Positions 1,142-42,052 of a stretch of DNA of 64,000 nt are shown piece by piece (within the stretch, counting starts at the first letter, position 1; each line of letters starts with the position of its first letter). The translations under genes and the position numbers were made by a program. The DNA comes from a virus. The notes beneath the pieces were generated by a model, which did not search any database, was not told the origin of the DNA, and worked only from the letters and a program-made list of their open reading frames with translations. The stretch is from positions 1 through 64,000 of the IMG/VR virus record IMGVR_UViG_3300028822_000042; one strand, 5' to 3'.

Positions 1142-1561
1142 ATGAGGAGTTTAGTTTTAGACATTCCTGAGATCAATCGAGCATTCGAATCATTTTTTCA
1201 CAGTTGGCCGACTGAGCCGAAGCCTCCGATAGAGGGGTTTCCTATTGTGGATCCTAATTCTAGTGATACAGAGAGTGTAAGGGGTTGGGAGATACAGATG
1301 GCGGTAGCTGGTTTTGGTGAGGAGAATGTAGAGGTATGGTCAGAGGGCAAGGTATTACATATAAAGGGTAGTAATAAGGAGAACGATGTTGCTCCCAGAT
1401 TCAGCTGTAGTTTTTACCACAAGATACCTTGTTCTAAGTATTTAGATATAGACCGTGCGGAGGCGAAGCTTGTTAACGGTATTTTAAGTATAAAGATACC
1501 AGTAGAGGAGGAGAGGGTAGAGCAGCGCAGGTATTTATTAAAGAAGGAGGAAATAAAATAA
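1142..1561 (+). CDS. Small heat shock protein (Hsp20/IbpA-like alpha-crystallin)
   Basis: IQMAVAGFGEENVEV, LHIKGS and AEAKLVNGILSIKIP alpha-crystallin signatures; strong SD. Confidence 0.9.
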   Translation: MRSLVLDIPEINRAFESFFHSWPTEPKPPIEGFPIVDPNSSDTESVRGWEIQMAVAGFGEENVEVWSEGKVLHIKGSNKENDVAPRFSCSFYHKIPCSKYLDIDRAEAKLVNGILSIKIPVEEERVEQRRYLLKKEEIK

Positions 1562-1605
1562 GTTTTTTATGTTATACTGGGGTGCCATAGATATTAGGAG
1601 GGTGA

Positions 1606-1992
1606 ATGGTACCGCAGTTAATGACCCCCAGGGAAGAATTTTTTCCTCACGAGACTACGACAAGTACTAGAATCCCGACAGTAGAATCTTATCAGAGGCA
1701 AGACGTAACGAAGTGGATTGCTTTATTATTTACTTTCATAGCGATGATAGTGGGGATGGTAGTATGGGCGACTAATGAGCATAGTGAGATAAGAGAGTGG
1801 ACAGTAGACAGGGATTATACTAACAAGAAAGAGTTAAAGGAGATAATAAAGGACAGTTATGTACCTTTACATGAGTTTACGAAGTTAAAACAAAAGTTAG
1901 AGGATCAGAGTAAGAAGATGGATGACATGAGTTTAAAAATTGATAAGATGCTTGAGGAGATACACAAGGTAAGTAGTAGGAGAAGAAGATGA
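1606..1992 (+). CDS. Single-TM protein with C-terminal coiled coil (holin-like?)
   Basis: WIALLFTFIAMIVGMVVWA hydrophobic helix, then a heptad-rich tail with a basic end; SD AGGAGG. Confidence 0.55.
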   Translation: MVPQLMTPREEFFPHETTTSTRIPTVESYQRQDVTKWIALLFTFIAMIVGMVVWATNEHSEIREWTVDRDYTNKKELKEIIKDSYVPLHEFTKLKQKLEDQSKKMDDMSLKIDKMLEEIHKVSSRRRR

Positions 1993-2294
1993 GTCAGAGA
2001 GACAAGACGATGGTAGGGTTAGCTCTTCTCAGGGAATCATTGAGAAACATTTTACATGTGCAGGTTCTCAAGAATCTAACTAATTTACTAGATGCTCTTG
2101 GAGGGGACAGGGACAGTTTTGTTAGTCAGTATAATCACTGGTCAAAAAGGAATGGTCCTGATTGCAGATATGCCTCTTATGCAAAGGAGTTTTTCCTTAG
2201 AGACCAAGCAGAGAGTGTAGCCAAATCAATTATTTGGTTATATAAAAACTTCGCTAAGGAATACGAAGATAAAGCAAATGAGGAGAAGAAATGA
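1989..2294 (+). CDS. Hypothetical protein
   Basis: 101-aa ORF coupled to both neighbours by ATGA overlaps. Confidence 0.6.
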   Translation: MSQRDKTMVGLALLRESLRNILHVQVLKNLTNLLDALGGDRDSFVSQYNHWSKRNGPDCRYASYAKEFFLRDQAESVAKSIIWLYKNFAKEYEDKANEEKK

Positions 2295-3514: not shown

Positions 3515-4303
3515 ATGGGAGGTGAAGGTTCAGGCAAGGCTAAGGGAGATTTACTTATCCTTGATGGCCATAAAGTAGAGAATGGCAAGGTCTCTAAGAC
3601 AGACTTCTTTAACTTCCTGGCCACAGACATCTCTGACTATTCAGATGTCAAGATGACTCCTAAACAGGCCCTCAAGTTCAAGAATTCCTTTGTCCGGATG
3701 ACACATGGAGTGGGAGCAGCCATTCCTATGATCTGTGTTGGCCCTAAGTGTCCAAACAAGCTTTGTGTTTTTCATGAGACAAAGACATGGCCCCTTTCGA
3801 GGCAGTGCTTGTACGAGGCCCGAATGGTCCAGTACCTCTTTCAAGCCTACATGGAAGACCTCGGTGTTGACCCTGAGAGCCCAACAGAGCTAACTCTTGT
3901 CAATGAGCTTGTAGAGGCAGACATCCTGAGCTATAGGGCTAATCTTGGTCTCTCTGGCGCCATAGACGAAGAGGCAGCCACACTTCTAAAGACCTCAGTC
4001 ATTGAGAAAGGTGAACATCTAGCAGAGACTACTGTTGTTCACCCTCTACTTGAAGTTAAAGAGCGAGCTAACCGTACCCGCATGAGAATCCTAGAGTCTC
4101 TAGCTGCTACACGTAGAGAAAAATACAAGAAAGCAGCAGCCCTCAAGAAATCAGAAGATTCAGATGCTTCTAATTTCCTCGCCGAGCTAAGAGAGCAATT
4201 CTCCACTTCTTCCGAGAAACAGATCGATTCTCTTGATAAAATAAGAGAAGACGCTAAGAAAGTAGCAAATGATCTAATTATAGATGCTGATTGGGAGCAG
4301 TGA
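3515..4303 (+). CDS. Probable terminase small subunit (Cys-cluster protein)
   Basis: C-x4-C-x4-C...C cluster followed by helical segments and a basic LAATRREKYK motif. Size and position upstream of TerL fit TerS. Function inferred from synteny only. Confidence 0.4.
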   Translation: MGGEGSGKAKGDLLILDGHKVENGKVSKTDFFNFLATDISDYSDVKMTPKQALKFKNSFVRMTHGVGAAIPMICVGPKCPNKLCVFHETKTWPLSRQCLYEARMVQYLFQAYMEDLGVDPESPTELTLVNELVEADILSYRANLGLSGAIDEEAATLLKTSVIEKGEHLAETTVVHPLLEVKERANRTRMRILESLAATRREKYKKAAALKKSEDSDASNFLAELREQFSTSSEKQIDSLDKIREDAKKVANDLIIDADWEQ

Positions 4304-4309
4304 TGTCCA

Positions 4310-7300
4310 GTGGCAAAACTTACAGATAAAGAAGTCCAGAGATTTTTTGATGATATTAATAAATCTCCTGGAGGAGTAAAGTCTACTGAGCCAGCTTTCC
4401 AAAGATATAGAAAGCAATTCCTCAGAAATATAGACTTTAATGACATTAAGAAGTACAGACCTGAACAACTTATCAGAGGAGCACGTACTTCAGAAGAACT
4501 CTTTATAATAGGAGAATATCTTAGTAAAGAGTGGGGGTCTAATAATTGGTGGTGGCAAGAGTACCACCAACGTAGAGTTACCCTTGCTCACCTGCCAAGT
4601 CTATATGGTTCTACAATTGACAAAGCAACAGGGAAACAGAGAGGACTTTGGGGTGTTCCTGTTAAACCAGAGACCTATATTCGTTCTTCTAAGGCCGGAC
4701 CACAAAAGTTTGGTGTCAATAGAAGACTTTTTTCTAGGTTTGCCAACTGGGAACAGATAACAGGCCAACAGAATCTATTCTCTTTAACAGAGACTCCTAG
4801 TGGACCTGCTATTAGAGGTTGGAAGCCAATTAAACCACCTGTTCTTCCTTCTAATGCTCCTGCAAATGCTATTGTTTTTGATTTGGAGACCACAGGTCTT
4901 CTTGATAATGAGAACCTAAATGTTATCTCTGCAGGATACTTTGATACTGGAAAACCAGATAAAGCTCCTATAGGCAAATACGCTTCTTTCGATAAAAGCC
5001 TTAAATATGATGCGCCGATTAGAAATAAGATTATCCCTCAATGGGAAAAAGCTGTTGCTGAACTAAAACCAAAATTATTATCAGAACAACAGCTAGTAGA
5101 AGACTTTATCAAAAGAGCAGAATCTAGTTCTAAGACTCATGCCCTGATGGGCTATAACATTAAGCAGTTTGATCTGCCAGTTCTGTTCTCTTCAGCTAAG
5201 AAATATGGTCTTGAGGGTAAACTAGAAAAAGCTGTTAAACAGTCTCATATTGTTGATGTAGCTGAATATGCTCAGGCTTTTATATCTAAACAGCTAGGCG
5301 GAACAGTAGTTGGCTGGGAGCAATCAGAACTTGGATTTAAACCTTTAGGGTGGCAATTAGAGAATGTAGCAGCATCGCTTGGATATAAGAATTTAGGTGG
5401 TGCTCATGAAGCCAGAACTGATGTTGATATGACTCAGTTTGTCTGGCGAAAGCTTAAAGACACTAAGAAATGGGATGAAGCTGCTAAACAATTTGATAAA
5501 GATCTTTTATTAAAATCCATACCAAGAGCAAAAGGTTACTCTCCTGTTGTCATTAAGAAAGGCATGGAGAGAGTTAATTTTGCTGCTGAGATGCTAAAAG
5601 ACGAATCTAAGTATCTTAGATCGTTTACTCATCACTTAGAAGAACTTTATGGTAAGGGGAAGCCTACATCAACACTAGGCAAGGCTGTTAAAGGCAAAGG
5701 TCTTGGGCTTGGTAGCATAGCTAGTTATTCAGCCTCATTTGTGGGCTTGAATATGATTCTTCCAGGTAATTTCTGGCAGAATGCATTTACCTCTGTTACT
5801 TGGGAAGCAGCTAGATTAGGAGCCAAGAAAGCAGGTGTTAAAGGCTGGAAGACTTGGCTTGCAGCAGGACTTGGTTCTGCTGTCGGTAATGCTATGTGGA
5901 TGGGAGCTAGTGCTCTCTCTAGTGATCCATCAGATGTAGCAGTAACTGAGTCTGGGTTTTCAGGCAAAGATGATGCTTATAATTTCATTCAGGGCTTAGG
6001 AGAACAAGGTCTAGCTCCAGAGGTAAGACATGAATTAACAGAATTTGGTTCCGGCTGGCGCGGAAGTAGAGATCTTCCTTCTTCTCTTATGGGAGTGCCA
6101 ATAGACCCTCAGGTTTTGGCCTTCAGAAGAGATGTTATTGAAGATAAAGAAGAATTAGCAGAACTAAAACAAGACATTAAAGAAAAACAAGCTGAAGCTC
6201 AAGCTAAGCTTGGTGATTTTGATCCTTCTCAGTTAGGTCCTATATCAGGCCCTGTTGCAGGTCTAGCCAGAAATAAAAGTCTTAAAGAAGTAAATCTATC
6301 TGACTACAAATTAACAGTAGAAGATGCAGACACTATTTTCCTTAGCAGAAAAGGTCTTGCTGGTCTCTTCTCTAAAGATATTGCAGTACGTCTTTCAGGT
6401 GTAGATGCTCCTGAGGTTGCAAGTCATGCAGATGATCCTATGGAAGATGTACGTATCTGGCAGGAACAAGCTGGAGGACAATGGGCTACTGAACAGTATA
6501 AGAAGCTAGTAGAAGAACAAGATAACTTAAGACTTGTTATTGATGCGAACAACAAGACTTATGGTCGTCGTCTTGGTGTTCTAATTGGAGATGAAGGAAC
6601 AAACCTTGCTTTAGAGAGTGTTAGGAAAGGTTTAGTTGCTGCTCTTCCTTTTGGTAAGTCATCAGAAGATGTTGTTAGCCGTAGAGCAATAGCCCAAGCA
6701 GAAGAAGAAGCCAAACAGAACGAAGCTGGTATCTGGCAGTTTGCTAGATATAAGGCCATTTCTGAGGCTACTGAAGAAATTGGTCAACCAATTACTTTCA
6801 ATGTTCTTACTGAACTTACTAAAGTTGCTAGGAATCTTAATCTTGGTACTTATGGTTCATTCTTAGAATCCTTAGGCGAACAACAAAGAGAACTTACTTA
6901 TCAAGAAGCTCATACCGCTCGTCGAATTGGCCGTGTTCTCAAGAAGACACATGGCAAAGCTAGATTCTCTCAAAAATTTAGCGGCAAAGACGACAACTAT
7001 AATACTGTTGAGGGACTAAGACATGATGGAGGCTTATCAGAAGATATTCGTAAAGATTTAACTCAATTTGGTTCTGGATTCGATATATTCAAACCAGTGC
7101 TACAATATGAATCTATCAGTGAAGCTAAGGATAGATTTATTGAAGACAAGAAGAAGAGATATGCAGTAGATAAGAAGTCTAGATTCTCCGGCCGGGACGA
7201 CCAATATAACACCATTGAGGGCTTGCTTCATACAGGTATGGCTAAAGATGTCCGTCAAGCCTTAACAGAATTCGGCTCTGGTTGGGACCCTGTACGTGCT

Positions 7301-8650
7301 ATGGCTAGAGCTATTTATAAGAATCTAGATGAAGAAGAAGCACTTGATGTATTTAGAAGGAGTGATCTTTTTAAGGGAGCAGTTTCTAAAGCTCTTAAAA
7401 CTCCAGAAAAACAATTAGGTAAAGGTGTTGCTGGTTCTGTTAAAGGATATACAGCTGAAATAAAACACGGCATTGAAGGAGTCCCTACTCAGTTTGGTTT
7501 TGCTGTTAAAGAAGCAAGTAGAGGGGAAGCATTTGCAGAGCATATGGCGATAGCAAAACTAGATGAAGTAGAGCAACTATTGCTTAAGAAGAGATACAAA
7601 AACCTAGAGGATGCCATGATTGAAGCAGAGAAAAGTGCTTTGAGCAAACAAGCACATGATCTTCCCTCTCTGTATGGCACTGGTAAGGATTTTGGTCTTG
7701 ATGAAGATACGATTATCATGGAGCAATTCAAAGGCACTCCTATTAGAAATATTAATAGAGAATTGACTCCTGGTGAGATTACAGATTTAAGTCAATCAGT
7801 TCAGAGAATGCATGCTGCTGGCATTACACATGGCGACCTTCATAGAGGTAATGTCATGCTTACAGAAGAAGGAAAGATAGGAATCATAGACTTAGGAATG
7901 GCCGAACGTCTAACAGACCCCAGAATGAGTAAACATCACTGGCAAGCAGTCATGAACGATCCTGTACAGAAAGCAGCACAGAAAGAATTAGGAAGAAAGG
8001 TAGATGTTGAAGAGTTTTCTAATATGCTAGATGTAGCAAATGTACATGCTGTTGATCTTATTTCGCAAGGTGCAAAGAAAGAAGCAAGACCTTATGTACA
8101 AGTTATAAATCAATTATTAAGCACAACTGAAGCTAATTTAATTGAAGCAAAAGCCTCACAAGTGTTTCAGATGTATAAGCAAATAGGAAAACCAGCTTCT
8201 ATACCCAAGAGAGTTGGTTCTAGTAGTAAAGTTATTCCTCCTGTTCAAGATGATTATATTAGCCCTACAGCCAAGACAGATTTAAATACTTTGCCTTTTG
8301 ACAAGACTCAACCTATGACGTCTAAAATTGACGTTCAAGACAATATGCTTAATCAGAATCAGCAAGGAATCTCTTCATCACCAAATTTACCTATGGGCGA
8401 AGGTACTGGAACAGGAGGAGGTCGGATAAAGAAGAATTCTGAATCGATCAGAAGAATGAGAGCTGAAAGGAAGAAGAGTGCATACGAAGATAGAGTTGTT
8501 AATGCTTCTGATGTTAACATTCCTAAAGACTCTCAGAGAAGTAAAAGAATGAAGAGATTTAGAGAGGTTAGTCGTTCTGCTGTAGGTATAGGACATAGAT
8601 CTGCCCACAATGCAGGCAGAAAACACTCAAAATTTAGTACTGTAGTATAA
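4310..8650 (+). CDS. Polyvalent multi-enzyme protein: DEDDh 3'-5' exonuclease + thermonuclease (SNase) + Ser/Thr protein kinase, with three internal repeats
   Basis: Exo motifs DLETTG / GYNIKQFD / HEARTD. SNase motifs EDADT / RLSGVDAPE / YGR / GIW. Kinase motifs GKGVAG / FAVK / HGDLHRGN / DLG. Repeats at 5957, 6977 and 7184. Confidence 0.88.
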   Translation: MAKLTDKEVQRFFDDINKSPGGVKSTEPAFQRYRKQFLRNIDFNDIKKYRPEQLIRGARTSEELFIIGEYLSKEWGSNNWWWQEYHQRRVTLAHLPSLYGSTIDKATGKQRGLWGVPVKPETYIRSSKAGPQKFGVNRRLFSRFANWEQITGQQNLFSLTETPSGPAIRGWKPIKPPVLPSNAPANAIVFDLETTGLLDNENLNVISAGYFDTGKPDKAPIGKYASFDKSLKYDAPIRNKIIPQWEKAVAELKPKLLSEQQLVEDFIKRAESSSKTHALMGYNIKQFDLPVLFSSAKKYGLEGKLEKAVKQSHIVDVAEYAQAFISKQLGGTVVGWEQSELGFKPLGWQLENVAASLGYKNLGGAHEARTDVDMTQFVWRKLKDTKKWDEAAKQFDKDLLLKSIPRAKGYSPVVIKKGMERVNFAAEMLKDESKYLRSFTHHLEELYGKGKPTSTLGKAVKGKGLGLGSIASYSASFVGLNMILPGNFWQNAFTSVTWEAARLGAKKAGVKGWKTWLAAGLGSAVGNAMWMGASALSSDPSDVAVTESGFSGKDDAYNFIQGLGEQGLAPEVRHELTEFGSGWRGSRDLPSSLMGVPIDPQVLAFRRDVIEDKEELAELKQDIKEKQAEAQAKLGDFDPSQLGPISGPVAGLARNKSLKEVNLSDYKLTVEDADTIFLSRKGLAGLFSKDIAVRLSGVDAPEVASHADDPMEDVRIWQEQAGGQWATEQYKKLVEEQDNLRLVIDANNKTYGRRLGVLIGDEGTNLALESVRKGLVAALPFGKSSEDVVSRRAIAQAEEEAKQNEAGIWQFARYKAISEATEEIGQPITFNVLTELTKVARNLNLGTYGSFLESLGEQQRELTYQEAHTARRIGRVLKKTHGKARFSQKFSGKDDNYNTVEGLRHDGGLSEDIRKDLTQFGSGFDIFKPVLQYESISEAKDRFIEDKKKRYAVDKKSRFSGRDDQYNTIEGLLHTGMAKDVRQALTEFGSGWDPVRAMARAIYKNLDEEEALDVFRRSDLFKGAVSKALKTPEKQLGKGVAGSVKGYTAEIKHGIEGVPTQFGFAVKEASRGEAFAEHMAIAKLDEVEQLLLKKRYKNLEDAMIEAEKSALSKQAHDLPSLYGTGKDFGLDEDTIIMEQFKGTPIRNINRELTPGEITDLSQSVQRMHAAGITHGDLHRGNVMLTEEGKIGIIDLGMAERLTDPRMSKHHWQAVMNDPVQKAAQKELGRKVDVEEFSNMLDVANVHAVDLISQGAKKEARPYVQVINQLLSTTEANLIEAKASQVFQMYKQIGKPASIPKRVGSSSKVIPPVQDDYISPTAKTDLNTLPFDKTQPMTSKIDVQDNMLNQNQQGISSSPNLPMGEGTGTGGGRIKKNSESIRRMRAERKKSAYEDRVVNASDVNIPKDSQRSKRMKRFREVSRSAVGIGHRSAHNAGRKHSKFSTVV
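5957..7285 (+). repeat. Three copies of a 34-35 aa protein repeat (5957-6058, 6977-7081, 7184-7285)
   Basis: FSGKDDAYNFIQGLGEQGLAPEVRHELTEFGSGW / FSGKDDNYNTVEGLRHDGGLSEDIRKDLTQFGSGF / FSGRDDQYNTIEGLLHTGMAKDVRQALTEFGSGW. Confidence 0.95.
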
Positions 8651-8682: not shown

Positions 8683-9069
8683 ATGAGTTTTTTTGGTAGG
8701 GCAATAGGTGGCGGTATAGCTGGCGGCCTATTGACTGGTGACCTTGGTGGTATAGCTGGTGGTGCTGCTGCTGGTGGACTTGGTGGATGGGCAATCGGCA
8801 AGACACTTGCCGACAGAACCACTGGCATGTTTACAGGTGGCATGGGAATGATAGGAGATGCTGCACTGAGGGCAACTTCTACTATTGGCAAACGTGGAGC
8901 ATTTAATGCTGCAAGAAGAATGGATAGAGGCATAACTAGAGCAGCTAGCTTCTTGGGAAAGAATCAATTAACGACAAACAAAGTTGGAGGTGCTGCTATG
9001 ACTGCATTAGGAACAGGAGCAGGCATACATATTGGTTCTTCTGTCTTAGCGTCTAACAGGAGGTACTAG
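8683..9069 (+). CDS. Glycine-zipper small protein (paralogue 1)
   Basis: SD AAGGAGGT; GxxxG-rich; end-to-end similarity to 9072..9461. Confidence 0.75.
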   Translation: MSFFGRAIGGGIAGGLLTGDLGGIAGGAAAGGLGGWAIGKTLADRTTGMFTGGMGMIGDAALRATSTIGKRGAFNAARRMDRGITRAASFLGKNQLTTNKVGGAAMTALGTGAGIHIGSSVLASNRRY

Positions 9070-9071
9070 TA

Positions 9072-9461
9072 ATGAATTTTTTTAGAAATGCATTAATGGG
9101 TGGTGCTATTGGTGGTTTAGCCACAGGTGATCTCGGTGGTGTAGCCGGTGGTGCTTTAGCTGGTAGTGCTGGCGTTTGGGGTGCGCGTAAACTGTTAAGT
9201 AATAAGAATGCTTCTGGAATGGGAGCTGCTCTCCTTGAGAGAGGGGGATATGGTCTTACTGCAGCGGCTTCTACTATTGGCAACCGTAAGCTGTTTGATG
9301 CTTCAATGAAGATGAAAGGCATGGCAGGTAGAGCTGCTGGTTATTTAGGACAGAACTCTGCTATGACAAATAAGGTTGGAGGATATGCCTTTGCAGGATT
9401 AGGTGCTATGGCTGCCGGGAATATCGGTTCTTCTGTTCTTAGGTCTAATGGAGGTTACTAG
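9072..9461 (+). CDS. Glycine-zipper small protein (paralogue 2)
   Basis: SD AGGAGGT; shares TGDLGG.AGG, STIG.R, RAA..LG.N, TNKVGG and IGSSVL.SN with paralogue 1. Confidence 0.75.
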   Translation: MNFFRNALMGGAIGGLATGDLGGVAGGALAGSAGVWGARKLLSNKNASGMGAALLERGGYGLTAAASTIGNRKLFDASMKMKGMAGRAAGYLGQNSAMTNKVGGYAFAGLGAMAAGNIGSSVLRSNGGY

Positions 9462-9464
9462 TCT

Positions 9465-10259
9465 ATGGATTGGTTCGATAAGAATCCTTTAGGCCCACAA
9501 GATATAAGTACATTTGGTGGCTTCCGCAGAGAGGCCATGTTTGATGCACATAAGTGGGGTCGATCTGTCTTTGCAAACTCATTTGCTAGACAAGGATTCG
9601 CATCTGTTGCCTTCGCTCCTACTGCAGGTGAAGCATGGAAGGCTTCTTGGAGAAGAACTAAGAGACAAGGAAGTGCTAAACATATTCAGAATTTAAGATC
9701 TATGCTTTCTAATGTGGCTCCTGGTTCTTCTGAATATAGAAATATTAATAAAGCACTATCGAAGGCAGAACAAGGTACAACCAAGATGGGACTTGCTAAG
9801 CGAGTGGGTGGGTTCGCATTAGGTGGTGCTTTTGCTCTTCTGCCTGCATTCATAACTCCTGGTGGTCTTCCTGAGAAGGGTAGAGCTGTAGCAGGTGGTT
9901 TGGCTGGTCTTGCTGGTTGGGAAGTTGGCTCTAAGGCGGGTATGGGTGTAGGTGCAGCAATAGGCATGATGATACCTATTCCTGGCATGGCAGCTGTTGG
10001 AGGTGCTCTTGGATATGTGGCTGGTGGTTTTCTTGGGGCTATTGGTGCAGACGAAGGTACACAAGCCTTAATGCGTATTCCAGATAATATGGTAGAGAGA
10101 GAACGCAAGAGAAGAAATCTTAACTGGAGAGGAGATCAAACTGCATTCATGACTCGTTCAGCTCATACTATGAGACAACAGTCTTTGCAAGCTATGAATA
10201 GAGGTATGAACAATGCTCGCTCTATGTTAGGCAGAGAAGGTGTGTTTCTGCACCAATAA
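9465..10259 (+). CDS. Glycine-zipper, probably membrane-interacting virion protein
   Basis: Long GxxxG hydrophobic stretch (GMGVGAAIGMMIPIPGMAAVGGALGYVAGGFLG) and a basic C-terminal helix. Confidence 0.65.
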   Translation: MDWFDKNPLGPQDISTFGGFRREAMFDAHKWGRSVFANSFARQGFASVAFAPTAGEAWKASWRRTKRQGSAKHIQNLRSMLSNVAPGSSEYRNINKALSKAEQGTTKMGLAKRVGGFALGGAFALLPAFITPGGLPEKGRAVAGGLAGLAGWEVGSKAGMGVGAAIGMMIPIPGMAAVGGALGYVAGGFLGAIGADEGTQALMRIPDNMVERERKRRNLNWRGDQTAFMTRSAHTMRQQSLQAMNRGMNNARSMLGREGVFLHQ

Positions 10260-10328: not shown

Positions 10329-13300
10329 TTGGATAATGAGATTGATAATTTAGAGGATTTAAGAAAATTAGATCTGCCGTTTGATGTAGATGAAGTATCG
10401 TCTCAGTGTCATCAATGTGTAAGAGATCAGCTAGAAAAGTACAAAAAACAGGTAGATGAGTCAGGTAAATCTGTTGCAAATAGATTTATAGTTCCTTGTC
10501 ATGGCATCAAGAAAACAATTATAGATCCTGTTAAAGAAGCGACTCTTACAGATAAACAGATAGAAACATTAAAAGCAGTAAATGATGTTGTCAGTTTTGC
10601 AGGTCATTATCTCAAGTTACCTGATAGTAGTTTATGGAATGCTAGATGGTACCAAGAGCAAGTTCTTAAATGCACTTCAAAGCGTAAAGTTTTAAGAATT
10701 GGCCGACGATGTTTAGTTCCTGGTTCTATGGTCCTGATGGCCAATGGCAAATGGAAGCCTATTGAAGATATTAGAGTTGGAGAATATGTTGCTTCTCGAA
10801 ACGCAAAAAACCAGTTAGTCTCAAAGAAAGTTCTTTATGAACATGATAATGGAATTAAAGATGTCTTTAATATTAAGATATCTAATGGAATGGAGATCAC
10901 ATGCACTTCAAACCATCCATTGCTGGCACTAGAGACACTAGAGTTTGGTAAAGGAGTTAGAAAGGTTTGGAAGTCTTTAGAAGATGGTTTATCTGTTGGA
11001 ACTAAAATTGTTGTTGCCAAACATTATGACCGCTGGGGTGAAAAACATAATCCTAGTTTGATGAAGTTGTTTGGTTATATGTTGACAGATGGTTATTTTG
11101 GCAAACCAGGTCAAACTCCAAAATTTACAAATAATAACAGACAAATGGTTTCAGAGGTTCAATGTCTTGCCAAAGAACTTTTTGATTATGACTGTTCTAT
11201 CCGGCCTAAAGGAAATGGATTCGATATCTATCTTACAGATGGAGATCATAGTTCTATTAATAAATTCTCTGAGACACTTAAGACGTTTGGGCTTCACGGT
11301 GTAAAGTCTGCCAGAAAACATATCTCAGATTTGTTTTTTGATTATGATAAACAAAGTCAAATGGCTTTAGTCAATCGCATGTTTTCTGGTGATGGTGGTG
11401 TTTCATTACACAACAAGAGAGAAGAACCTAGAGCAGAAGTCTTCTTAGTCTCATCTAGTAAAGAAATAATTAGACAGGTTCAACTTATCCTTCGCAAAAT
11501 TAATGTTGAATCATTCATTTCTCATGACAATAGACAGATTGATGTTATGAGCTGTGGAGTCATTACTGAATCTGACTCTTGGAAACTCCGTATATCTAGA
11601 GCAGAAAGTATTGAGAATTTCTTTGCAAATGTTGGTCTTGTTTACGGCAAAGAAGATGTTTCAAACAAAGCAATATCTATTGCCAATTCAATCAAGAAGA
11701 GAAGAAGATCAGGAAGTAAGCAGTTTAGACATGAGACGATTAAGTCTATTGAGCATATAGGCGAATCACAAACATATGATATTGAAGTAGAAGATACTCA
11801 TAATTTTATTGTAGACAATATCGTATCTCATAATACCGGAAAGACAGACTTGGTCTGTGTTGAGATCTGTTATTACCTTTTTACTAGAAGAAACATAAAA
11901 CTTGTAGTTGTTGGTCCCCAGAAATCTCATACAGAAGAGATTATTAATCGTGTCAGAGCCTTTATTTCTAATAATCCCATGATGAAGGATTCTGTGGTTA
12001 GAGATGTTTCTGCTCCATATTATGAGATAAAACTTCGTAATGGTTCTCGCTTAAGGGGATTTGCTGCTGGAACTAAAGGCAAACAGCAGGGCGTATCTGT
12101 TCGTGGTCAAGATGCGGATAGAATCTACATTGAGGAGATGGATTACGTTGATGAGAATGCTATTCAGGGAGCTATATTCCCTATCATGATGACGAATCCA
12201 GATACTGCTCTTATCGGATTCTCAACTCCTTCAGGTTTCAGAAGTCCTTATTATAACCTCTGTGAAGAGAGCCCTCAGTATAAAGAGTTTCATTTTACAT
12301 ACAAAGTACTTCCATGGTGGAGAAATGTTGAGTTAGAGAGAAATTCATTCACAGAGGAACAATGGACTCATGAGTATCTAGCAGAGTGGGGTACTTCAGA
12401 GTCTGGTGTTTATAAGCCAGAATATATTGATAGAGCCATAACTGAATACAATTATGATGATATGGTTCGTAATTCAGTCTGGAAATATACTATTGGTACA
12501 GATTGGAATGAGAAATTTGGTACTGAGATTGTCGTTCTTGGTTACAATACTCTAACTACAATGTTTCAAGTAGTTGAGTCAGTTCATATTGAAAGATCAG
12601 AGTTTACACAGCTTGCAGGAGTATCAAAACTTATAGAAATGAACCGTAAATGGAGACCTTCTTTCATTTATATAGATGCCGGTAACGGTTCAACTAATTA
12701 TGAACTTCTTAGGAAAAAAGCCTATGATAATAGTAGATTTGATGGAGATAGAGACACTGCACGTCTATTAAGCATCCTTAAAAAATATGATGCTGGTGCT
12801 GCTTTAGAGGTTAGAGATCCTGTTTCACAGCAGAAACACAAAACTCCAGCTAAACCTTTTATGGTTAATTCCTCTGTGCGCATGTTTGAGCAAGGTAAAA
12901 TTAGAATCTCTAGTCGCGATAAAGTCTTAGAAAAACAGCTCAGAAGTTATATTATTGAGAGATATACACCTACAAAGACTCCTGTTTATGGTCTAGATGA
13001 TCCAAAATTGGGAGATCATAAGCTAGATGCACTAAATCTTTCTATTGTTGCTTTTCAGCTAGAATTTAATGATTTACATGCTACTAAAGTCATAACAGAT
13101 ATAGGCGTATCTGTTGACCCAAGAACGATATCTAAGAAATCTTCTAACCCTAGAGAAGAGTCATTTCAGCATAAGAGACCAGAACCAAGAGACTTAAATG
13201 GAGGAATTAGAACTCCTCTAGAAGAACGAGTATTTGCTCATACTCCTGGCAGGATAGATAATGGTCTTGAAGGTATTAGAACCAATCGTCCTGGATGGTC

Positions 13301-13397
13301 TACAGATGAAGAAGACAAGCATATACAGAAATTTTTACAGAAGAGACGTTCAAGGTTTAGACTTCGCTCTGGTCGACCAAGAAGAACAAATATTTAG
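10329..13397 (+). CDS. terL: Terminase large subunit interrupted by an intein
   Basis: Walker A GRR|TGKT split by the intein, RGQDADRIYIEEMDY Walker B, FSTP motif, YTIGTDWN RNase-H-like nuclease, DHKLDAL. TTG start with AGGAG SD. Confidence 0.93.
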   Translation: MDNEIDNLEDLRKLDLPFDVDEVSSQCHQCVRDQLEKYKKQVDESGKSVANRFIVPCHGIKKTIIDPVKEATLTDKQIETLKAVNDVVSFAGHYLKLPDSSLWNARWYQEQVLKCTSKRKVLRIGRRCLVPGSMVLMANGKWKPIEDIRVGEYVASRNAKNQLVSKKVLYEHDNGIKDVFNIKISNGMEITCTSNHPLLALETLEFGKGVRKVWKSLEDGLSVGTKIVVAKHYDRWGEKHNPSLMKLFGYMLTDGYFGKPGQTPKFTNNNRQMVSEVQCLAKELFDYDCSIRPKGNGFDIYLTDGDHSSINKFSETLKTFGLHGVKSARKHISDLFFDYDKQSQMALVNRMFSGDGGVSLHNKREEPRAEVFLVSSSKEIIRQVQLILRKINVESFISHDNRQIDVMSCGVITESDSWKLRISRAESIENFFANVGLVYGKEDVSNKAISIANSIKKRRRSGSKQFRHETIKSIEHIGESQTYDIEVEDTHNFIVDNIVSHNTGKTDLVCVEICYYLFTRRNIKLVVVGPQKSHTEEIINRVRAFISNNPMMKDSVVRDVSAPYYEIKLRNGSRLRGFAAGTKGKQQGVSVRGQDADRIYIEEMDYVDENAIQGAIFPIMMTNPDTALIGFSTPSGFRSPYYNLCEESPQYKEFHFTYKVLPWWRNVELERNSFTEEQWTHEYLAEWGTSESGVYKPEYIDRAITEYNYDDMVRNSVWKYTIGTDWNEKFGTEIVVLGYNTLTTMFQVVESVHIERSEFTQLAGVSKLIEMNRKWRPSFIYIDAGNGSTNYELLRKKAYDNSRFDGDRDTARLLSILKKYDAGAALEVRDPVSQQKHKTPAKPFMVNSSVRMFEQGKIRISSRDKVLEKQLRSYIIERYTPTKTPVYGLDDPKLGDHKLDALNLSIVAFQLEFNDLHATKVITDIGVSVDPRTISKKSSNPREESFQHKRPEPRDLNGGIRTPLEERVFAHTPGRIDNGLEGIRTNRPGWSTDEEDKHIQKFLQKRRSRFRLRSGRPRRTNI
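10710..11834 (+). mobile_element. Intein (375 aa) with LAGLIDADG homing endonuclease
   Basis: Begins CLVPGSMV, block B TSNHP, LAGLIDADG-like FGYMLTDG and RMFSGDG, ends YDIEVEDTHNF...SHN followed by +1 Thr. Confidence 0.93.
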
Positions 13398-14678: not shown

Positions 14679-16652
14679 ATGTCTACAAGTGATGAGTATA
14701 AAAGTACTAAATCTTCAGATGCAGTTTCTGACAAGACAGAAGAACCACAAGTTAATTCCGCTAATCCATTCTCTAGTCAGGACTATCATCAAATTGTTTC
14801 TGCTTTTGAGAAACAATCTACTGATTGGGCAGAAGAAGACTATGCTTTAGCATCTCATTACAAAGATACTTACTCTACTAGAAATTTCTCTGAGAGAGTA
14901 AAAGAGCAGATGGCTCACTATCCAGGTCTTCATCAACCCGCCACTGGTGTGCCTGATGAAGATCCGTATAAAACAAATGCTGAAAAACAAGCAGAAAGAA
15001 GGCAGAATTTTTGGACAGATGCAATGAGCAGTCCAGATGCCTTTATGAATGGTCTGCGCTCTAGAGAACAAGACTTTGATTATACTACTGTATTTGGTTC
15101 TGACGCATCAGCTAAAACTAAAGCAGAGAATGTAGGAAAAATTCTTACAGAATGCATTCCTTGCTTTGGTCGATTACTAGATGCTGATGGATTAGTGCCA
15201 GATGGAGACCTTTTAGAAGTACATGCTTTAAATATAAATCTAAGAAAAGATCTTATTTCAGACACAAAGAAGCTTTTAAATAATCCTGGTTCGTATTTGG
15301 ACATTTGTGAGCTTCTCAATTTGCTATCTCATCAATGTGTTCAGGATCTTTTTGCTATATTGGCTCTGCTGACTCAGTATTTAGCTAAGTTGAACCTAGA
15401 TATCAAATTTAATTTTGACTTTATAGAAAATCTTGTTGGAGCTATTTTAAGCCCATTCCTTGATGCTCTTAGTCAGTGGTTAGATAAATGGATACAGCTA
15501 ATTATTGAACCTCTAGTTTGTGTAGTTGACCACATTAATGAAGTTATAGTTACTTCGCAAACTATGAAGATTCCTCTCTCTTCTGCTGGTATTGGCATTG
15601 ATGCTGATCTTGGCGTACAAGATGGAGTTTTCAGCAAACAAGATTCAGCTTCTACAAAGAAAAGACAACATAAGACTAAAAAGTCTAAATGGTCTGACTC
15701 AGAGATGGATAGATTTAGCGATCTCCCTCCTGGGCACTATACTCCAAGAAGACCTACTGTTCCAGATGAAGAAATACAGATGTCTGCTACAGAGATTAAG
15801 GAGTCTTGGAATCCAAGTATGTCTGAGCAGCAGAGAGAAGAAACAAATCAAAAGTGGGAAGAAATCAATAAACAGAGAAAAGACAAGAAACTTAGCTATA
15901 CTTCTGACATTTATAAAGAAAGAAGAGATGGGACTAGATGGAGTAAGGATAATGTTCCTAATTCTGAGAAGTTTAGCGCTGGTTTTCAGTTTGGTGATGA
16001 ATACCATCCACCTGAAAAACAAAGCCTTCCTAAGACAGCAGACAGCTACTTTGACACCGGACCATTAACAAACTCAATTGTTCAATTGAGAAATATTCTT
16101 CAAGCTGGGATTCAGTATGTAAGAGATTGGTTTATCTATATTACACAGATGGTATACGATCTTCTTGGTACTGACTTCGGTTGGATGAAAAACAAGACAG
16201 GTTCTAGTTTTCTAAAATCAGATCTTATTAAGATGATTTCTCTTGTGAAGGCAATTATTCAAGCAGTTTCTAAAAATGGACTTAGATGTGGAATAAATAC
16301 TAATTTAGATCAAGATCAAGTAAAGTTTATTCTAGAAGACACCTTAAACAAATTCTCTCCTACTAAGTTTGAAGTTATGGAGAATGGAGATATTAAGGTT
16401 ATACCTTCTGGAGGAAGTTTGCCTGATACTAAAGATACATCTGATGCTGTGCAAGCTCAGATAGAAGAACAAGATAAAATAGATATGGGAGAAGGGATAG
16501 GTAAAGTAACAGATAAAAAGACAGAAGAGACTCTGCAGGATTCTGTTAAATCAGGTATCATAGTTAAAAATTGCTTAAGAGACTTAACCTCTGATGAGGC
16601 AGCCAGAGCAAGGGAGTGGATCTTAGAATATGAGAGGAGATCAAATGGCTGA
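14679..16652 (+). CDS. Hypothetical virion protein (helical, Cys-containing)
   Basis: 657 aa, SD AGGAG, amphipathic helices around a disordered middle; directly upstream of the portal. Confidence 0.6.
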   Translation: MSTSDEYKSTKSSDAVSDKTEEPQVNSANPFSSQDYHQIVSAFEKQSTDWAEEDYALASHYKDTYSTRNFSERVKEQMAHYPGLHQPATGVPDEDPYKTNAEKQAERRQNFWTDAMSSPDAFMNGLRSREQDFDYTTVFGSDASAKTKAENVGKILTECIPCFGRLLDADGLVPDGDLLEVHALNINLRKDLISDTKKLLNNPGSYLDICELLNLLSHQCVQDLFAILALLTQYLAKLNLDIKFNFDFIENLVGAILSPFLDALSQWLDKWIQLIIEPLVCVVDHINEVIVTSQTMKIPLSSAGIGIDADLGVQDGVFSKQDSASTKKRQHKTKKSKWSDSEMDRFSDLPPGHYTPRRPTVPDEEIQMSATEIKESWNPSMSEQQREETNQKWEEINKQRKDKKLSYTSDIYKERRDGTRWSKDNVPNSEKFSAGFQFGDEYHPPEKQSLPKTADSYFDTGPLTNSIVQLRNILQAGIQYVRDWFIYITQMVYDLLGTDFGWMKNKTGSSFLKSDLIKMISLVKAIIQAVSKNGLRCGINTNLDQDQVKFILEDTLNKFSPTKFEVMENGDIKVIPSGGSLPDTKDTSDAVQAQIEEQDKIDMGEGIGKVTDKKTEETLQDSVKSGIIVKNCLRDLTSDEAARAREWILEYERRSNG

Positions 16653-18804
16653 AACAACAAAATTAACACCAGCTAAAAATACTGGTTTCTCTACTCCTGA
16701 GAAGAAATCCATCATCCCTGCTACTCTTCCTGCGCCCACAAAGGTGTATACCACTAATATTGGTAGAGGAAGAGCACCTACACTCAGATGGGAAGTACCT
16801 GAGTGGGATCTTGTTGAGACAGGTAGAATCTTAGATACAGAGTCAATTGTTAGAAGAGCTTTTAGAGTAAAGAAGAACCTTTTCCTTAAAGAAGGATATG
16901 AATTTACAGGTTCTAATCTAGACAGAGTAGCTTATGTAAAGAAGAGACTTCAACAGATAGAGGTAGCTTCTGGCATACCATTTCCTATTTTAATCTCTCA
17001 GACAATCTCTTCGCTGATAAGATGCGCTAATGCATTTTGGGTTAAAGTCAGAAAGACAGAAGCTTCTGGTGGCAAAGTACGTACTGTTGGTAATAAGAAA
17101 CTAAAACCTGTTGCAGGTTATTTCTTACTTCCTGCTGAAACAGTCAGATTCAAAAGAGATGAATACGGAAAAATTGTTAAGTATCAACAGGAGATATATG
17201 GAAAAGTTGCTAAGGAGTTTAGACCTGAAGATGTAATTCATTTCTATTTAGACAAGAGAGAAGGATATTCTGTAGGGACTCCTATCCTTACTCCAGTTAA
17301 GGATGACATTCGTGCTCTTCGACGAATAGAAGAAAACTTAGAGCTTCTTGTATATCAGCATCTCTTTCCGTTGTTTCATTATCAGGTAGGAACAGAAGAT
17401 GCTCCAGCAGCTATTTTTCCTGATGGCACATCTGAGATTGATGTTGTTCAGACTAAAGTTGCTGAGATGCCCTCAGATGGATGTTGGGTTACTCCCGAGC
17501 GGCATAAAATCACTCCATTACAGGCAGGAAGTTCTCCTGTAGCTGTAGACAAGGTCATAGATCACTTTAAGCAGAGAATCTATACTGGTATTGGTGTTTC
17601 ATCGGTAGACATGGGTGAAGGTGGAACTGCAAATAGATCCACAGCCCAAACAATGTCAAGAAACCTAGTTGATGACACTAAGGCTGACCAGAAAGAATTC
17701 GGTGCTCAATTCTACAGTAAAGTTATTGTAGAGCTTCTAAAAGAATCTACATTCTCTCAGGCTACTCTTTTAGATGAACCAAACAGAGTATACCTGAAGT
17801 TCAAAGAGATAGATTTTGAAGCTAGACAGGCAAAAGAGAATCATCTTGTAGACATCTTCATTAAGAACGCAATCACTCACTCTGAGATGAGACAGATGAT
17901 GGGTCTTGAACCATTTGCTGGTGATGGATGGCCTACAGGCACTAAGAAGTCTCAGATGTTCTCTAAAGGAGATGGGGATTGGTCTCAGACAAATTATGGT
18001 CTTATTGAGAGAGATAAGGTTATACTTCAGTCTCTTGATGAACCAGGCACAGATGCTTCTAAAGCAGAAGCCGCTTCACGTACAAAAGCTACTAGTGCAA
18101 AAGCAGCAGGTGGTAGTTCTGTCAATAATAAAAACCAGCCTTCAAATCAGCATGGTACTCGCTCCAGTACAAAAATTAACAAAGATAATTTAGAAAGTTT
18201 AATAGGATACAGTACTCCTATACATGATATCTTTAATAAACTTAGAGAGTCAATAGCTTCTGATATCAGGTCTAGCGGAACCAAACTTAAAGTTATAGAT
18301 TTTAATCTTGATGTAGCTTTTTCTGATGCAAAGAAAACTCTAGTCAGAAAGTCTAAGCTCGCCTACAGAGCTGGTCTTCGTGAGTCTGGGGCAGATATAT
18401 TCTCTGTAAATTATAATAGCGCGTACACTAAGATTCAAAAACATATAGAGAAATATATCTTGAAACTCAAAGAGGATTTATATAATCAGATCAAAAGACA
18501 TACAATTAGAGATATGAGATTAAAGCAAGAGGATGCTGTGTTTGTAGAGATGATATTTGATGCTCTAAGACATAGAACAGATATGATTGACAAGAGTGAA
18601 CCTATGAGAGCATATAACTTTGGTCTTGCATCTGGGTTTAGGTCTTTAGGTAATATGAATATGAGGTCTGTCCCTACAAGTGATTCTGCATGTAACATAT
18701 GCAAAGAGCAGTTTTTGATATACAAAGAGTCGGATGCTATAATTTACGAAGAGTTACCGCCTCTGCATCCTCACTGCAAATGTAAAATGAAGGTAACCAA
18801 TTAA
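16645..18804 (+). CDS. Portal protein fused to a C-terminal MuF (SPP1 gp7-like) domain
   Basis: Portal-like core (NAFWVKVR, FRPEDVIHF, GTPIL, GVSSVDMGEGGTANRSTA, AITHSEMRQMMGLEP) plus a MuF-type tail (DKSEPMRAYNFG...CNIC...PPLHPHCKC). Start moved to ATG 16645, which has an AGGAG SD. Confidence 0.85.
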   Translation: MAETTKLTPAKNTGFSTPEKKSIIPATLPAPTKVYTTNIGRGRAPTLRWEVPEWDLVETGRILDTESIVRRAFRVKKNLFLKEGYEFTGSNLDRVAYVKKRLQQIEVASGIPFPILISQTISSLIRCANAFWVKVRKTEASGGKVRTVGNKKLKPVAGYFLLPAETVRFKRDEYGKIVKYQQEIYGKVAKEFRPEDVIHFYLDKREGYSVGTPILTPVKDDIRALRRIEENLELLVYQHLFPLFHYQVGTEDAPAAIFPDGTSEIDVVQTKVAEMPSDGCWVTPERHKITPLQAGSSPVAVDKVIDHFKQRIYTGIGVSSVDMGEGGTANRSTAQTMSRNLVDDTKADQKEFGAQFYSKVIVELLKESTFSQATLLDEPNRVYLKFKEIDFEARQAKENHLVDIFIKNAITHSEMRQMMGLEPFAGDGWPTGTKKSQMFSKGDGDWSQTNYGLIERDKVILQSLDEPGTDASKAEAASRTKATSAKAAGGSSVNNKNQPSNQHGTRSSTKINKDNLESLIGYSTPIHDIFNKLRESIASDIRSSGTKLKVIDFNLDVAFSDAKKTLVRKSKLAYRAGLRESGADIFSVNYNSAYTKIQKHIEKYILKLKEDLYNQIKRHTIRDMRLKQEDAVFVEMIFDALRHRTDMIDKSEPMRAYNFGLASGFRSLGNMNMRSVPTSDSACNICKEQFLIYKESDAIIYEELPPLHPHCKCKMKVTN

Positions 18805-22394: not shown

Positions 22395-23654
22395 ATGCCT
22401 AGAAAGATTGATCATGCGACAGCCTTCGGCGACAGCTATGAGCTTTTCCGCGATACGTGGTTTGCTAATGGATTCAATGAGCCTACACAGCAGCAAATTG
22501 AATTCAAAGATATTATGGCCACTCCGAATGCTCAGTACTGGATGCCTAAGGTAGTTGAGGAGATTGTTCGTGAGCCTGTTGAGCCTATGCTCATTGTTCC
22601 TAGCTTGCTAGACAGGATCGCTTACACTCCAGCTGCTAGAATTACATTCCCAGCAGTAGGTGCTTTGGTTGCATTTGACCTTGCTGAAGGTCAGGCATAT
22701 CCAGAACAACAGTTAAATGTTGCTCCTGGTAGCATCACAATCAATGTTGGGAAAACTGGTGTTGCGTTTAAGATTACTGAAGAGATGCAGAAGTATTCTC
22801 AGTACGATGTGATGAACATGCACATCCGTGCTGCTCGACGTGCTCTTGATCGACACAAAGAGAAGAAAGGTATGGACTATATCACTGGTATGGGCGTATC
22901 TCTCTTCGATAATAAGAATCCGACAACATCTGTCTATGGCACATGCACAGGTCGGTCAATTACAGGTGCTGGTAATGGCTCTTGTAGAATGGAAGACCTT
23001 CTAAAGGCATATGCCCACATCATGATGCAGGGTTACACTCCTGATACCATCCTGATGCATCCTCTGACATGGTCTATGTGGATGGCTGATCCTCTGCTTC
23101 AGACTATTGTCAAGAATACAGGTAATGGTAGTTGGTTCCAGCCGCACAATATGCCTAAATCTGGTTTGCCTTGGGCTAACGCCTCACAGAACAAAATGGG
23201 TATCCATGGTGGTTACGGCCAGTATACACCTCCGGATAACAATGCTTCTGCTACACCTACTGGTGTGGATGAGATCGATCAAAATCTCAACAGTGCACCT
23301 GTTATCCCTAATTACTTCCCGCATCCGCTGAAAGTATTGGTTAGCCCATTTGCTCCGTTCAATGTCCACAACAATAGTTGTGACATCATGATCTTCGACT
23401 CTAGCAACCTTGGTGCTCTAGTTGTTGATGAGGATGTCAGCATTGACCAATGGGAAGATATGTCAACAGACATCATGAAGGTTAAACTGAAAGAGCGTTA
23501 TGCTTTTGCTATCTATGAAGATGGTTTGGCAGTTGGTGTTCTGAAACATGTCCCAGTTAAGGCTAATGAGATTGCTCTGCCAGTAACAGCTACTATTTCT
23601 GCTGCTGGATCTCTTGACGAACTGGACCAAACAACATCTATTAGTGGTCTCTAA
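22395..23654 (+). CDS. Major capsid protein (HK97 fold)
   Basis: AFDLAEGQAYPE, VGKTGVAFKITEEM, PDTILMHP, KLKERYAF; very strong SD AAGGAGG; followed by a terminator. Confidence 0.88.
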   Translation: MPRKIDHATAFGDSYELFRDTWFANGFNEPTQQQIEFKDIMATPNAQYWMPKVVEEIVREPVEPMLIVPSLLDRIAYTPAARITFPAVGALVAFDLAEGQAYPEQQLNVAPGSITINVGKTGVAFKITEEMQKYSQYDVMNMHIRAARRALDRHKEKKGMDYITGMGVSLFDNKNPTTSVYGTCTGRSITGAGNGSCRMEDLLKAYAHIMMQGYTPDTILMHPLTWSMWMADPLLQTIVKNTGNGSWFQPHNMPKSGLPWANASQNKMGIHGGYGQYTPPDNNASATPTGVDEIDQNLNSAPVIPNYFPHPLKVLVSPFAPFNVHNNSCDIMIFDSSNLGALVVDEDVSIDQWEDMSTDIMKVKLKERYAFAIYEDGLAVGVLKHVPVKANEIALPVTATISAAGSLDELDQTTSISGL

Positions 23655-37662: not shown

Positions 37663-37663
37663 T

Positions 37664-42049: not shown

Positions 42050-42052
42050 TAA

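Follow-up and report, generated by a model that had tools for sequence, protein, structure and literature searches.

A 36-residue repeat, here called R, occurs three times in one giant modular protein, P0001 (1446 amino acids, aa), which is encoded by a 64,000-nucleotide (nt) stretch of viral DNA comprising positions 1 to 64,000 of the IMG/VR record IMGVR_UViG_3300028822_000042 (hereafter the window, meaning that whole stretch). At the level of sequence comparison, R is a profile family without a name in Pfam, NCBIfam, PHROGs or the PDB sequences, and the protein appears to be a hypervariable 'beads-on-a-string' multi-enzyme protein whose joints are formed by R. The reading that we favour, tentatively and at rather less than even chances, is that each module has its own R, a linear signal that is recognised in trans and would dock a virion-packaged polyvalent protein, mark it for cleavage, or both. 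Virion packaging, a partner acting in trans and cleavage are what we infer in this reading.

P0001 begins with an N-terminal region and a DEDD exonuclease, followed by a Gly-rich hydrophobic segment, R1, an SNase module, R2, a spacer, R3, a kinase module and a basic tail. These features are located in the window as follows:

4310-8650, + strand: giant modular open reading frame (ORF) P0001 (1446 aa), from the translated ORF
4859-5641, + strand: DnaQ/PolB-type 3'-5' exonuclease region, aa 184-444 (PHROG 192, E 1.7e-13)
5696-5944, + strand: Gly/Ala/Leu-rich hydrophobic (glycine-zipper-like) segment, ~aa 463-545, directly before R1, from reading of the sequence
5957-6061, + strand: R1, aa 550-584 (88.5 bits with a hidden Markov model, HMM, of the three copies)
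6077-6967, + strand: SNase module, aa 590-886 (Pfam SNase core aa 693-810, E 4.3e-12; module HMM m1)
6977-7081, + strand: R2, aa 890-924 (89.0 bits with the same HMM)
7184-7288, + strand: R3, aa 959-993 (93.8 bits), with the FGSGWD tail typical of copies preceding the kinase module
7301-8641, + strand: kinase module, aa 998-1444, with a Bud32/RIO/ABC1-like catalytic region at ~aa 1127-1208 and a low-complexity basic tail

The original prediction, made from the letters of the window alone, had described a three-copy repeat at domain junctions under selection as a peptide, and each part of this description is borne out. Translation and pattern search place the motif FSG[KR]DD.YN..[EQ]GL...R..LT[EQ]FGSG[WF] at aa 550, 890 and 959 (nt 5957, 6977 and 7184), and the patterns SG.DD.[YFW]N and [FY]GSG[WFY] each match three times in the six-frame translation of the window, only within R1-R3. 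At 88-94 bits each, the copies are real and far beyond chance. A profile of the copies detected no fourth copy in the 86.5-kb virus record. Domain placement with Pfam and PHROGs puts the copies at domain junctions, and no match of the whole proteins to Pfam, PHROGs or NCBIfam covers R. Seventeen of the 45 aligned columns are invariant among R1-R3, and the codons differ in 14 of these 17 (for example Ser TCA/AGC/TCC and Arg AGA/CGT/CGT); selection therefore acts on the R peptide. R2 and R3, with a 34-aa spacer between them, look like a local duplication of one junction. Among 23 relatives in which an SNase is followed by a kinase, 16 have one R between the two modules, four have two (P0001-P0003 and P0102) and three have none at the 15-bit threshold.

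The Pfam matches of the exonuclease region (RNase_H_2 and DNA_pol_B_exo) are weak and lie under their cut-offs, and the kinase matches in Pfam and NCBIfam span only the catalytic-loop part of the profiles (e.g. positions 105-152 of 263 in Pkinase). Pfam detected no MuF or zincin peptidase domain in P0001. The C-terminal ~150 aa (~1300-1446; window 8200-8650, + strand) are of low complexity, with the last ~80 strongly basic (Arg and Lys); from its composition, this tail would suit contact with packaged DNA.

R extends well beyond the window. A word-seeded search with aa 540-1000 of P0001 returned 98 proteins, all 98 of which contain R. A profile built from 28 R copies, taken from the window and 20 IMG/VR loci, was scored against 1.84 billion representative proteins and revealed 553 carriers at E <= 0.001, including 400 at E <= 1e-10 and 137 at E <= 1e-30; the best 150 of these 553 all have 2-7 copies. 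All relatives are metagenomic, and many of their ORFs are possibly truncated at contig ends. The 202 proteins that were examined hold 579 R copies of at least 15 bits, distributed as one copy in seven proteins, two in 79, three in 66, four in 39, five in seven, six in three and seven in one. The spacing between copies has a median of 269 aa (quartiles 208-332) in the first 98 proteins, and R is limited to a single ORF per locus in 21 of 21 loci.

R was absent from 50,697 GenBank phage records searched with P0001 (tblastn and megablast) and with R3 (tblastn at E <= 1). It was not found by a feature search of the ESM Atlas, nor by two exact-pattern scans of 185,579 species genomes, which are pattern-limited and give weak evidence of absence. 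Pfam assigned no family to the 28 copies (one chance match at E 0.17), a profile search of PDB sequences gave a best E of 1.2 to an FGSGW string of superoxide dismutase, and the strings YNTIEG, DFGSGW, DFGSGY and NTIEGL brought up only five matches, all unrelated, in the text of 8.4 million papers and preprints. The earlier statement that the repeat is not a recognised named family thus holds for Pfam, NCBIfam, PHROGs and PDB.

A profile search with tabulation of the cargo had been proposed as the check for a modular system, and the 553 carriers with their diverse cargos agree with such a system. The 202 proteins were cut at the repeats and the segments grouped by a two-sided coverage filter and Louvain communities, which hinge on the BLAST thresholds. 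The 730 inter-repeat segments of at least 50 aa fell into 194 sequence communities, 56 of them with more than one member; the largest communities are those of the kinase, with 100 segments (70 at the C-terminus), of the SNase, with 68 that are mostly internal, and of N-terminal modules. Few families can be recognised in the cargo: besides the DEDD exonuclease, the SNase and the Bud32-like kinase, there are a Cas4-like nuclease and a J domain, and precomputed lists add DUF2441 and DUF4406. A Pfam scan of 14 relatives gave one or two modules in seven of them and no match in the other seven, including P0067 (2454 aa, 7 copies).

The modules are arranged as a mosaic, with 181 distinct architecture strings in the 202 proteins and 265 different adjacent pairs. 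The string count is inflated by singleton and short-segment classes, and the predecessor counts are more robust: 28 different multi-member communities precede the kinase module, and 13 precede and 18 follow the SNase module. The two modules that flank a copy of R are unrelated to each other. The order of domains is thus not fixed, no known structural repeat in Pfam or PDB matches R, and the diversity of cargo that had been anticipated behind R is found. The smallest versions (L003, L007 and L020; 339-677 aa) consist of a short N-terminus, one strong R and the kinase, with two fragmentary R matches in L020. The module HMMs m0 and m8 detected no kinase in the giant ORFs of loci L001, L002 and L010/L012/L013; those of L001 and L010/L013 are bounded by both neighbour genes, and the L002 locus begins ~380 nt upstream of its ORF. 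Since giant ORFs without a kinase exist, R was rejected as a general kinase substrate or docking site.

R had been described as a tag in front of each cargo domain, and of this description the position at junctions stands, whereas the specific attachment to the following cargo does not. The nearest R copy in another protein has the upstream module in common in 104 of 303 cases and the downstream module in 85 of 299, compared with 15 of 303 and 19 of 299 for random partners. Of the 215 copies flanked on both sides by communities of at least four members, 44 agree with their nearest copy in another protein in the upstream module alone, 32 in the downstream module alone and 25 in both modules, and 114 agree in neither. 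R variants thus follow the module before them no less often than the module behind them, which makes R a joint; the candidate role of a prefix to the downstream cargo is one that we consider unsupported. Only the last residues vary with the downstream module, as in FGSGWD[AP] before the kinase.

Identity between R copies is 61.4% within one protein and 58.7% between proteins. When two copies are compared as DNA, their longest identical stretch has a median length of 9 nt, as in codon-resampled controls; shared runs of at least 20 nt occur in 1.7% of copy pairs versus 1.0% of controls, and runs within one genome are 7-15 nt long. R is therefore not maintained as nucleotide homology, and the suggestion in the original prediction that it could be a homology handle for swapping modules finds no support at the DNA level. 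The mosaicism may exploit the in-frame joints at R.

The consensus of 278 distinct R copies is [F]-S-G-[KR]-D-D-x-Y-N-T-I-E-G-L-x-H-x-G-h-A-x-x-x-R-[KR]-x-[LN]-T-[DE]-F-G-S-G-[WYF]-x-G. In these copies, which come from 98 very divergent proteins, the F-G-S-G core is 97-100% invariant (F 100%, G 97%, S 99%), and among the other positions the Arg reaches 93%, the two central Gly 92% each and the Asn 91%. Conservation falls to background within ~8 residues on each side of R. The residue before the core is Asp in 56% of copies, Glu in 18%, and Pro or Gly in ~14%.

AlphaFold2 models of R alone (28-row alignment) contain a single helix over h-A-x-x-x-R-x-x-L at a mean confidence (pLDDT) of 68. In context (P0001 aa 590-1300, 22-row alignment), the SNase module is modelled at pLDDT 85-97, the first 80 residues of the kinase module at 77-95 and the last 100 modelled residues at 30-60. 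Model residues 298-349 and 361-402 (aa 887-938 and 950-991), which contain R2 and R3, have pLDDT values below 50, a confidence score that is not a measurement of disorder. In these models R is placed outside both neighbouring folds and forms no confident mini-domain. High conservation without a predicted fold points to a peptide read by a partner.

The R-carrying phages are a lineage of uncultured jumbo myoviruses distantly related to Bacillus phage 0305phi8-36. The source record is a linear viral contig, 45% complete by CheckV, with nearly all ORFs on one strand, and among cultured phages the jumbo myoviruses 0305phi8-36 and Acinetobacter phage ME3 come closest (portal identity ~32%). The order of genes is kept across loci: a gp112-like gene, the giant ORF, small Gly-zipper proteins, a gp115-like gene, the large terminase (TerL), two to three small genes, a 650-aa gene and the portal gene. 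In all 21 of the 21 loci the giant gene keeps the same syntenic position, ahead of both TerL and the portal gene. Its neighbours in the window are:

3515-4303, + strand: upstream neighbour, 262 aa, like 0305phi8-36 gp112 and the C-terminal part of ME3 gp009
8683-9461, + strand: pair of small Gly-zipper paralogues (128 and 129 aa) that immediately follow the giant ORF
9465-10259, + strand: 264-aa Gly-zipper protein, present in 21 of 21 loci, with a C-terminus homologous to 0305phi8-36 gp115
10329-13397, + strand: large terminase, 1022 aa, split by an intein with a LAGLIDADG endonuclease (Pfam and alignment with ME3)
16630-18804: portal gene, downstream of TerL
18822-20945, + strand: prohead protease/scaffold candidate, 707 aa, whose N-terminal 234 aa resemble 0305phi8-36 gp123 (tblastn E 4.5e-15)
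22395-23654, + strand: HK97-like major capsid protein
27568-29460: tail sheath gene, further downstream

The 262-aa upstream neighbour is present in 17 of 21 loci (tblastn E 2e-11 to gp112 and 1e-13 to ME3 gp009), and the 264-aa protein aligns with gp115 at an hhalign probability of 96.3% (E 1.8e-9). The portal ORF has no Pfam family at E <= 0.1, and the label 'portal-MuF' used in the original prediction was not confirmed. The gp123 protein of 0305phi8-36 is annotated as 'protease/scaffold' of the HK97/P2 type, and residues H78, S168, C179, C182, C192 and H194 of the candidate in the window are invariant in 64 relatives. The Cys/His cluster formed by C179, C182, C192 and H194 adjoins the putative catalytic Ser168, the middle of the scaffold part contains a very conserved CGPDRSFPVPDCAHVTAARRLIGRY block (PHROG 16160, function unknown), and three relatives (P0265, P0294 and P0311) contain intein domains.

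In 0305phi8-36, the proteins gp113, gp114 and gp116 from the interval between gp112 and TerL are annotated as virion proteins by mass spectrometry. The giant ORF lies in the same interval and therefore occupies a place that encodes virion proteins in the only studied relative, a correspondence of position and not of homology. At the syntenic place upstream of TerL, ME3 encodes gp011 (L024 5895-7484). The 529 aa of this protein include the exonuclease motif FDTETTG and, at the C-terminal end, a hydrophobic segment. It contains no R by hhalign, and its BLASTP match to the N-terminus of P0001 is not significant (E 0.98); gp011 may be an un-extended form of the N-terminal module of the giant gene.

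The giant protein fits the class of phage polyvalent proteins in its multi-enzyme make-up and gene position. In the passages of Iyer et al. (2017, PMC5512222) used here, such proteins are described as having many catalytic domains per polypeptide, genes located beside the portal or terminase genes and mosaic, fast-evolving architectures; they are predicted to be packaged and proteolytically processed, and a truncated protein kinase lacking the C-terminal subdomain is typical of them. P0001 combines an exonuclease, an SNase and a kinase, its relatives add the Cas4-like nuclease and J domain, and the giant gene has the same packaging-gene context in all 21 loci. For the packaging of the giant protein itself, the support is positional and comes from gp113, gp114 and gp116 of 0305phi8-36. 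P0001 differs from the class in that Pfam detected no MuF or zincin peptidase domain in it, and the passages of PMC5512222 used here mention no motif that recurs at domain junctions (the word 'linker' is absent, and 'repeat' appears twice, for other systems).

If R is a linear signal recognised in trans, the giant protein would be built into the prohead, where each R would be bound by a conserved head-assembly component, either the protease/scaffold protein or the capsid shell. As an internal version of a capsid-targeting sequence, R would dock each module and would mark its junction for the prohead protease, which would thereby free single enzymes (nucleases, the kinase and many unknown modules) from the polyprotein, and the released enzymes would travel with the DNA into the host. 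Counted in favour of this proposal are the number of R copies, which follows the number of modules (1-7 copies); the fixed synteny, in an interval that encodes virion proteins in 0305phi8-36, with a gp123-like gene after the portal gene and R confined to a single ORF per locus; the core of R, which is invariant between unrelated flanks, selected at the peptide level and without a predicted fold; and the precedents of the polyvalent proteins, with their predicted packaging and processing, and of the ejection proteins of SPN3US. More doubtful is the fuller version, in which R would be a portable 'load-and-release' address, the module behind it being carried into the prohead by binding to a head component and then freed by the prohead protease.

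Several observations weigh against a docking and cleavage signal. An acidic residue precedes F-G-S-G in only ~74% of copies, and a Glu/Asp-specific cut at this site therefore cannot be universal. The core patterns of R occur only in the giant ORF and not in the capsid, portal or scaffold of the window, whereas in phages T4 and phiKZ all prohead-protease substrates share one site; this counts against R as a prohead-protease site. Known sites of this kind in T4 and phiKZ have 3-4 residues, and R with its 36 aa is far longer. The only protein of the gp112-TerL interval with demonstrated homology to a window protein, gp115, does not itself have a virion-protein annotation, and R was found in no cultured phage among the GenBank records. 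A hydrophobic segment precedes R in 20% of all copies by a strict definition and in 57% of first copies by a lenient one, which is left unexplained by the model.

Among known systems, R would work most like the T4 capsid-targeting sequence or a polymorphic-toxin pre-toxin element, yet it has the defining features of neither. The T4 sequence is ~10 aa long, N-terminal, present once per gene and has an (L/I)xE end cut by a gp21-type protease; it directs a packaged enzyme into the prohead and is then cut there, and jumbo phages such as phiKZ and SPN3US cut many internal proteins. R, in contrast, is internal, 36 aa long and repeated within one gene, whereas the known sites are 3-residue consensus motifs, and the protease candidate in the window is of the HK97/P2 type by the annotation of gp123 and not of the gp21 type. 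R is therefore not a T4-type capsid-targeting sequence by definition, being internal and 36 aa long with Glu before FGSG in 18% of copies, and it is not a shared prohead-protease substrate site, as its core is found only in the giant ORF within the window. In the part of the SPN3US literature used here, ejection proteins are reported to be cut by the prohead protease.

The pre-toxin elements (PT-VENN, PT-TG and Rhs DPxGL) form a conserved border before exchangeable effectors, and some are processing sites. They occur once, before a single C-terminal toxin of secreted bacterial proteins, whereas R occurs up to seven times in a protein of the phage head block, and Pfam matched neither R nor P0001 to pre-toxin domains. 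An analogy can also be drawn with encapsulin cargo-loading peptides and the coat-binding helix-turn-helix of the P22 scaffold, which are short, unfolded or single-helix elements that bind the inside of an HK97-fold shell; they differ from R in being terminal, present once per cargo protein and without sequence similarity to it.

These peptides are the precedent for an alternative that we regard as unlikely, namely that contacts of R with a head component (the inner face of the capsid, the scaffold, the portal or the gp115-like protein) tether the protein at several points, without any cleavage. The uncut giant protein would then be pinned inside the head or ordered for ejection. A repeat that is conserved yet predicted to be unfolded is compatible with this alternative, and so is the conservation of its possible partners: no other head protein sampled is as conserved as the major capsid protein, whose identity of 59-86% in 25 loci is similar to that of R (~59% between copies of different proteins), whereas the protease/scaffold is just 27-56% identical in 62 of 63 aligned relatives (closest 83%). 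One tag per polypeptide would suffice for docking, yet R copies follow module number, and a folded chain of 1400-2400 aa would have to exit through the tail uncut. In the capsid protein, the HK97-like core is preceded by a conserved AFGDSYELFRDTW string at the N-terminus (window 22395-22520, + strand; loci L026-L049). This string and R have only F-G-x-x-aromatic in common, and it is treated as a weak lead because its spacing varies among the 25 relatives (insertions in L040, L042, L044-L046 and L049).

The hydrophobic segments may reflect a signal on the host or membrane side, the sole reading that explains them and, in our estimate, a rather improbable one. The segments would insert into the host membrane after ejection or in late infection, and a conserved protease, translocase or chaperone of the host would recognise R at the membrane boundary and release, position or activate the modules. 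Strictly defined transmembrane-like segments end at most 12 aa before R in 106 of 523 copies, compared with 1.1% expected by chance, and 118 of the 189 strict segments with a later R copy lie directly before R. By a lenient measure, an uncharged run of at least 14 residues precedes 111 of 195 first copies and 52 of 322 later copies versus 75 of 2020 random positions, and genes next to the giant ORF encode glycine-zipper proteins. Conversely, 270 of the 322 later copies have no such segment, including R2 and R3 of the window; in P0001 the Gly-rich hydrophobic stretch is followed by R1 alone and did not pass the strict filter. This reading names no conserved host partner, and R has no Pfam similarity to known sorting or cleavage signals.

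It is less probable still that R acts by itself, either through an N-to-O acyl shift at the Ser of F-G-S-G or cyclisation of the 91%-conserved Asn, or as no more than a flexible spacer, with which the modules on either side could fold and unfold without affecting each other. The invariant Ser follows an invariant Gly, conserved His, Asp and Asn residues lie within the same 36 residues, and R is present at every junction. Known self-cleaving motifs, however, lie inside folded domains that strain the scissile bond, whereas R is predicted to be unfolded both alone and in context, and neither PDB sequences nor Pfam give a match to autoproteolytic families. A spacer would not keep ~10 near-invariant positions across 553 proteins.

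That R persists mainly as homology for module swaps between phages is very improbable: the junctions always coincide with R and the module order is extremely mosaic, as the 181 strings, 265 adjacent pairs and 28 kinase predecessors indicate, yet the copies show no nucleotide identity beyond the peptide constraint (a median shared run equal to that of the controls and different codons for 14 of 17 invariant residues), so that a recombination handle of the polymorphic-toxin style finds no support; peptide-level invariance needs a function at the protein level, and the in-frame joints more probably gave rise to the mosaicism than exist on its account.

Other features of the window lie outside the giant gene. 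The TerL intein spans ~aa 127-502 (Pfam Intein_splicing E 1.8e-15, LAGLIDADG_3 E 1.1e-14), with the ME3 TerL aligning on both flanks; TerL is 612-1454 aa long among the 21 loci, and the insertion therefore comes and goes. Window 1142-2294 (+ strand) contains a gene for an Hsp20-like small heat-shock protein (PHROG 432, E 1.8e-9). Of the two small genes that come next, one weakly matches Rz-like spanins, and the trio is kept upstream of the giant gene in seven loci. A 657-aa protein (window 14679-16652, + strand) encoded between TerL and the portal gene is kept in 20 of 21 loci and has a sub-threshold Pfam match to the DNA mimic Ocr (aa 545-604, E 6.7e-4, 20.5 bits versus a cut-off of 25). In the tail region (window 33481-48508, + strand), three very large ORFs of 1393, 1461 and 2151 aa lie in a row.

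Whatever its mechanism, R defines a new profile family with 553 representatives and precisely marks the domain borders in hypervariable phage proteins that are now labelled only 'thermonuclease' or 'Bud32'. If R is a docking or cleavage signal, it would predict the packed and injected proteins of uncultured jumbo phages, with hundreds of module families mostly of unknown function, and would provide a short tag with which HK97-fold capsids could be loaded with foreign proteins. If the load-and-release version were true, R would represent a natural plug-and-play system of cargo loading for an HK97-fold capsid, which has not been described for tailed phages in the sources searched, and would let jumbo phages assemble and reshuffle their arsenal of injected enzymes as beads on a string.

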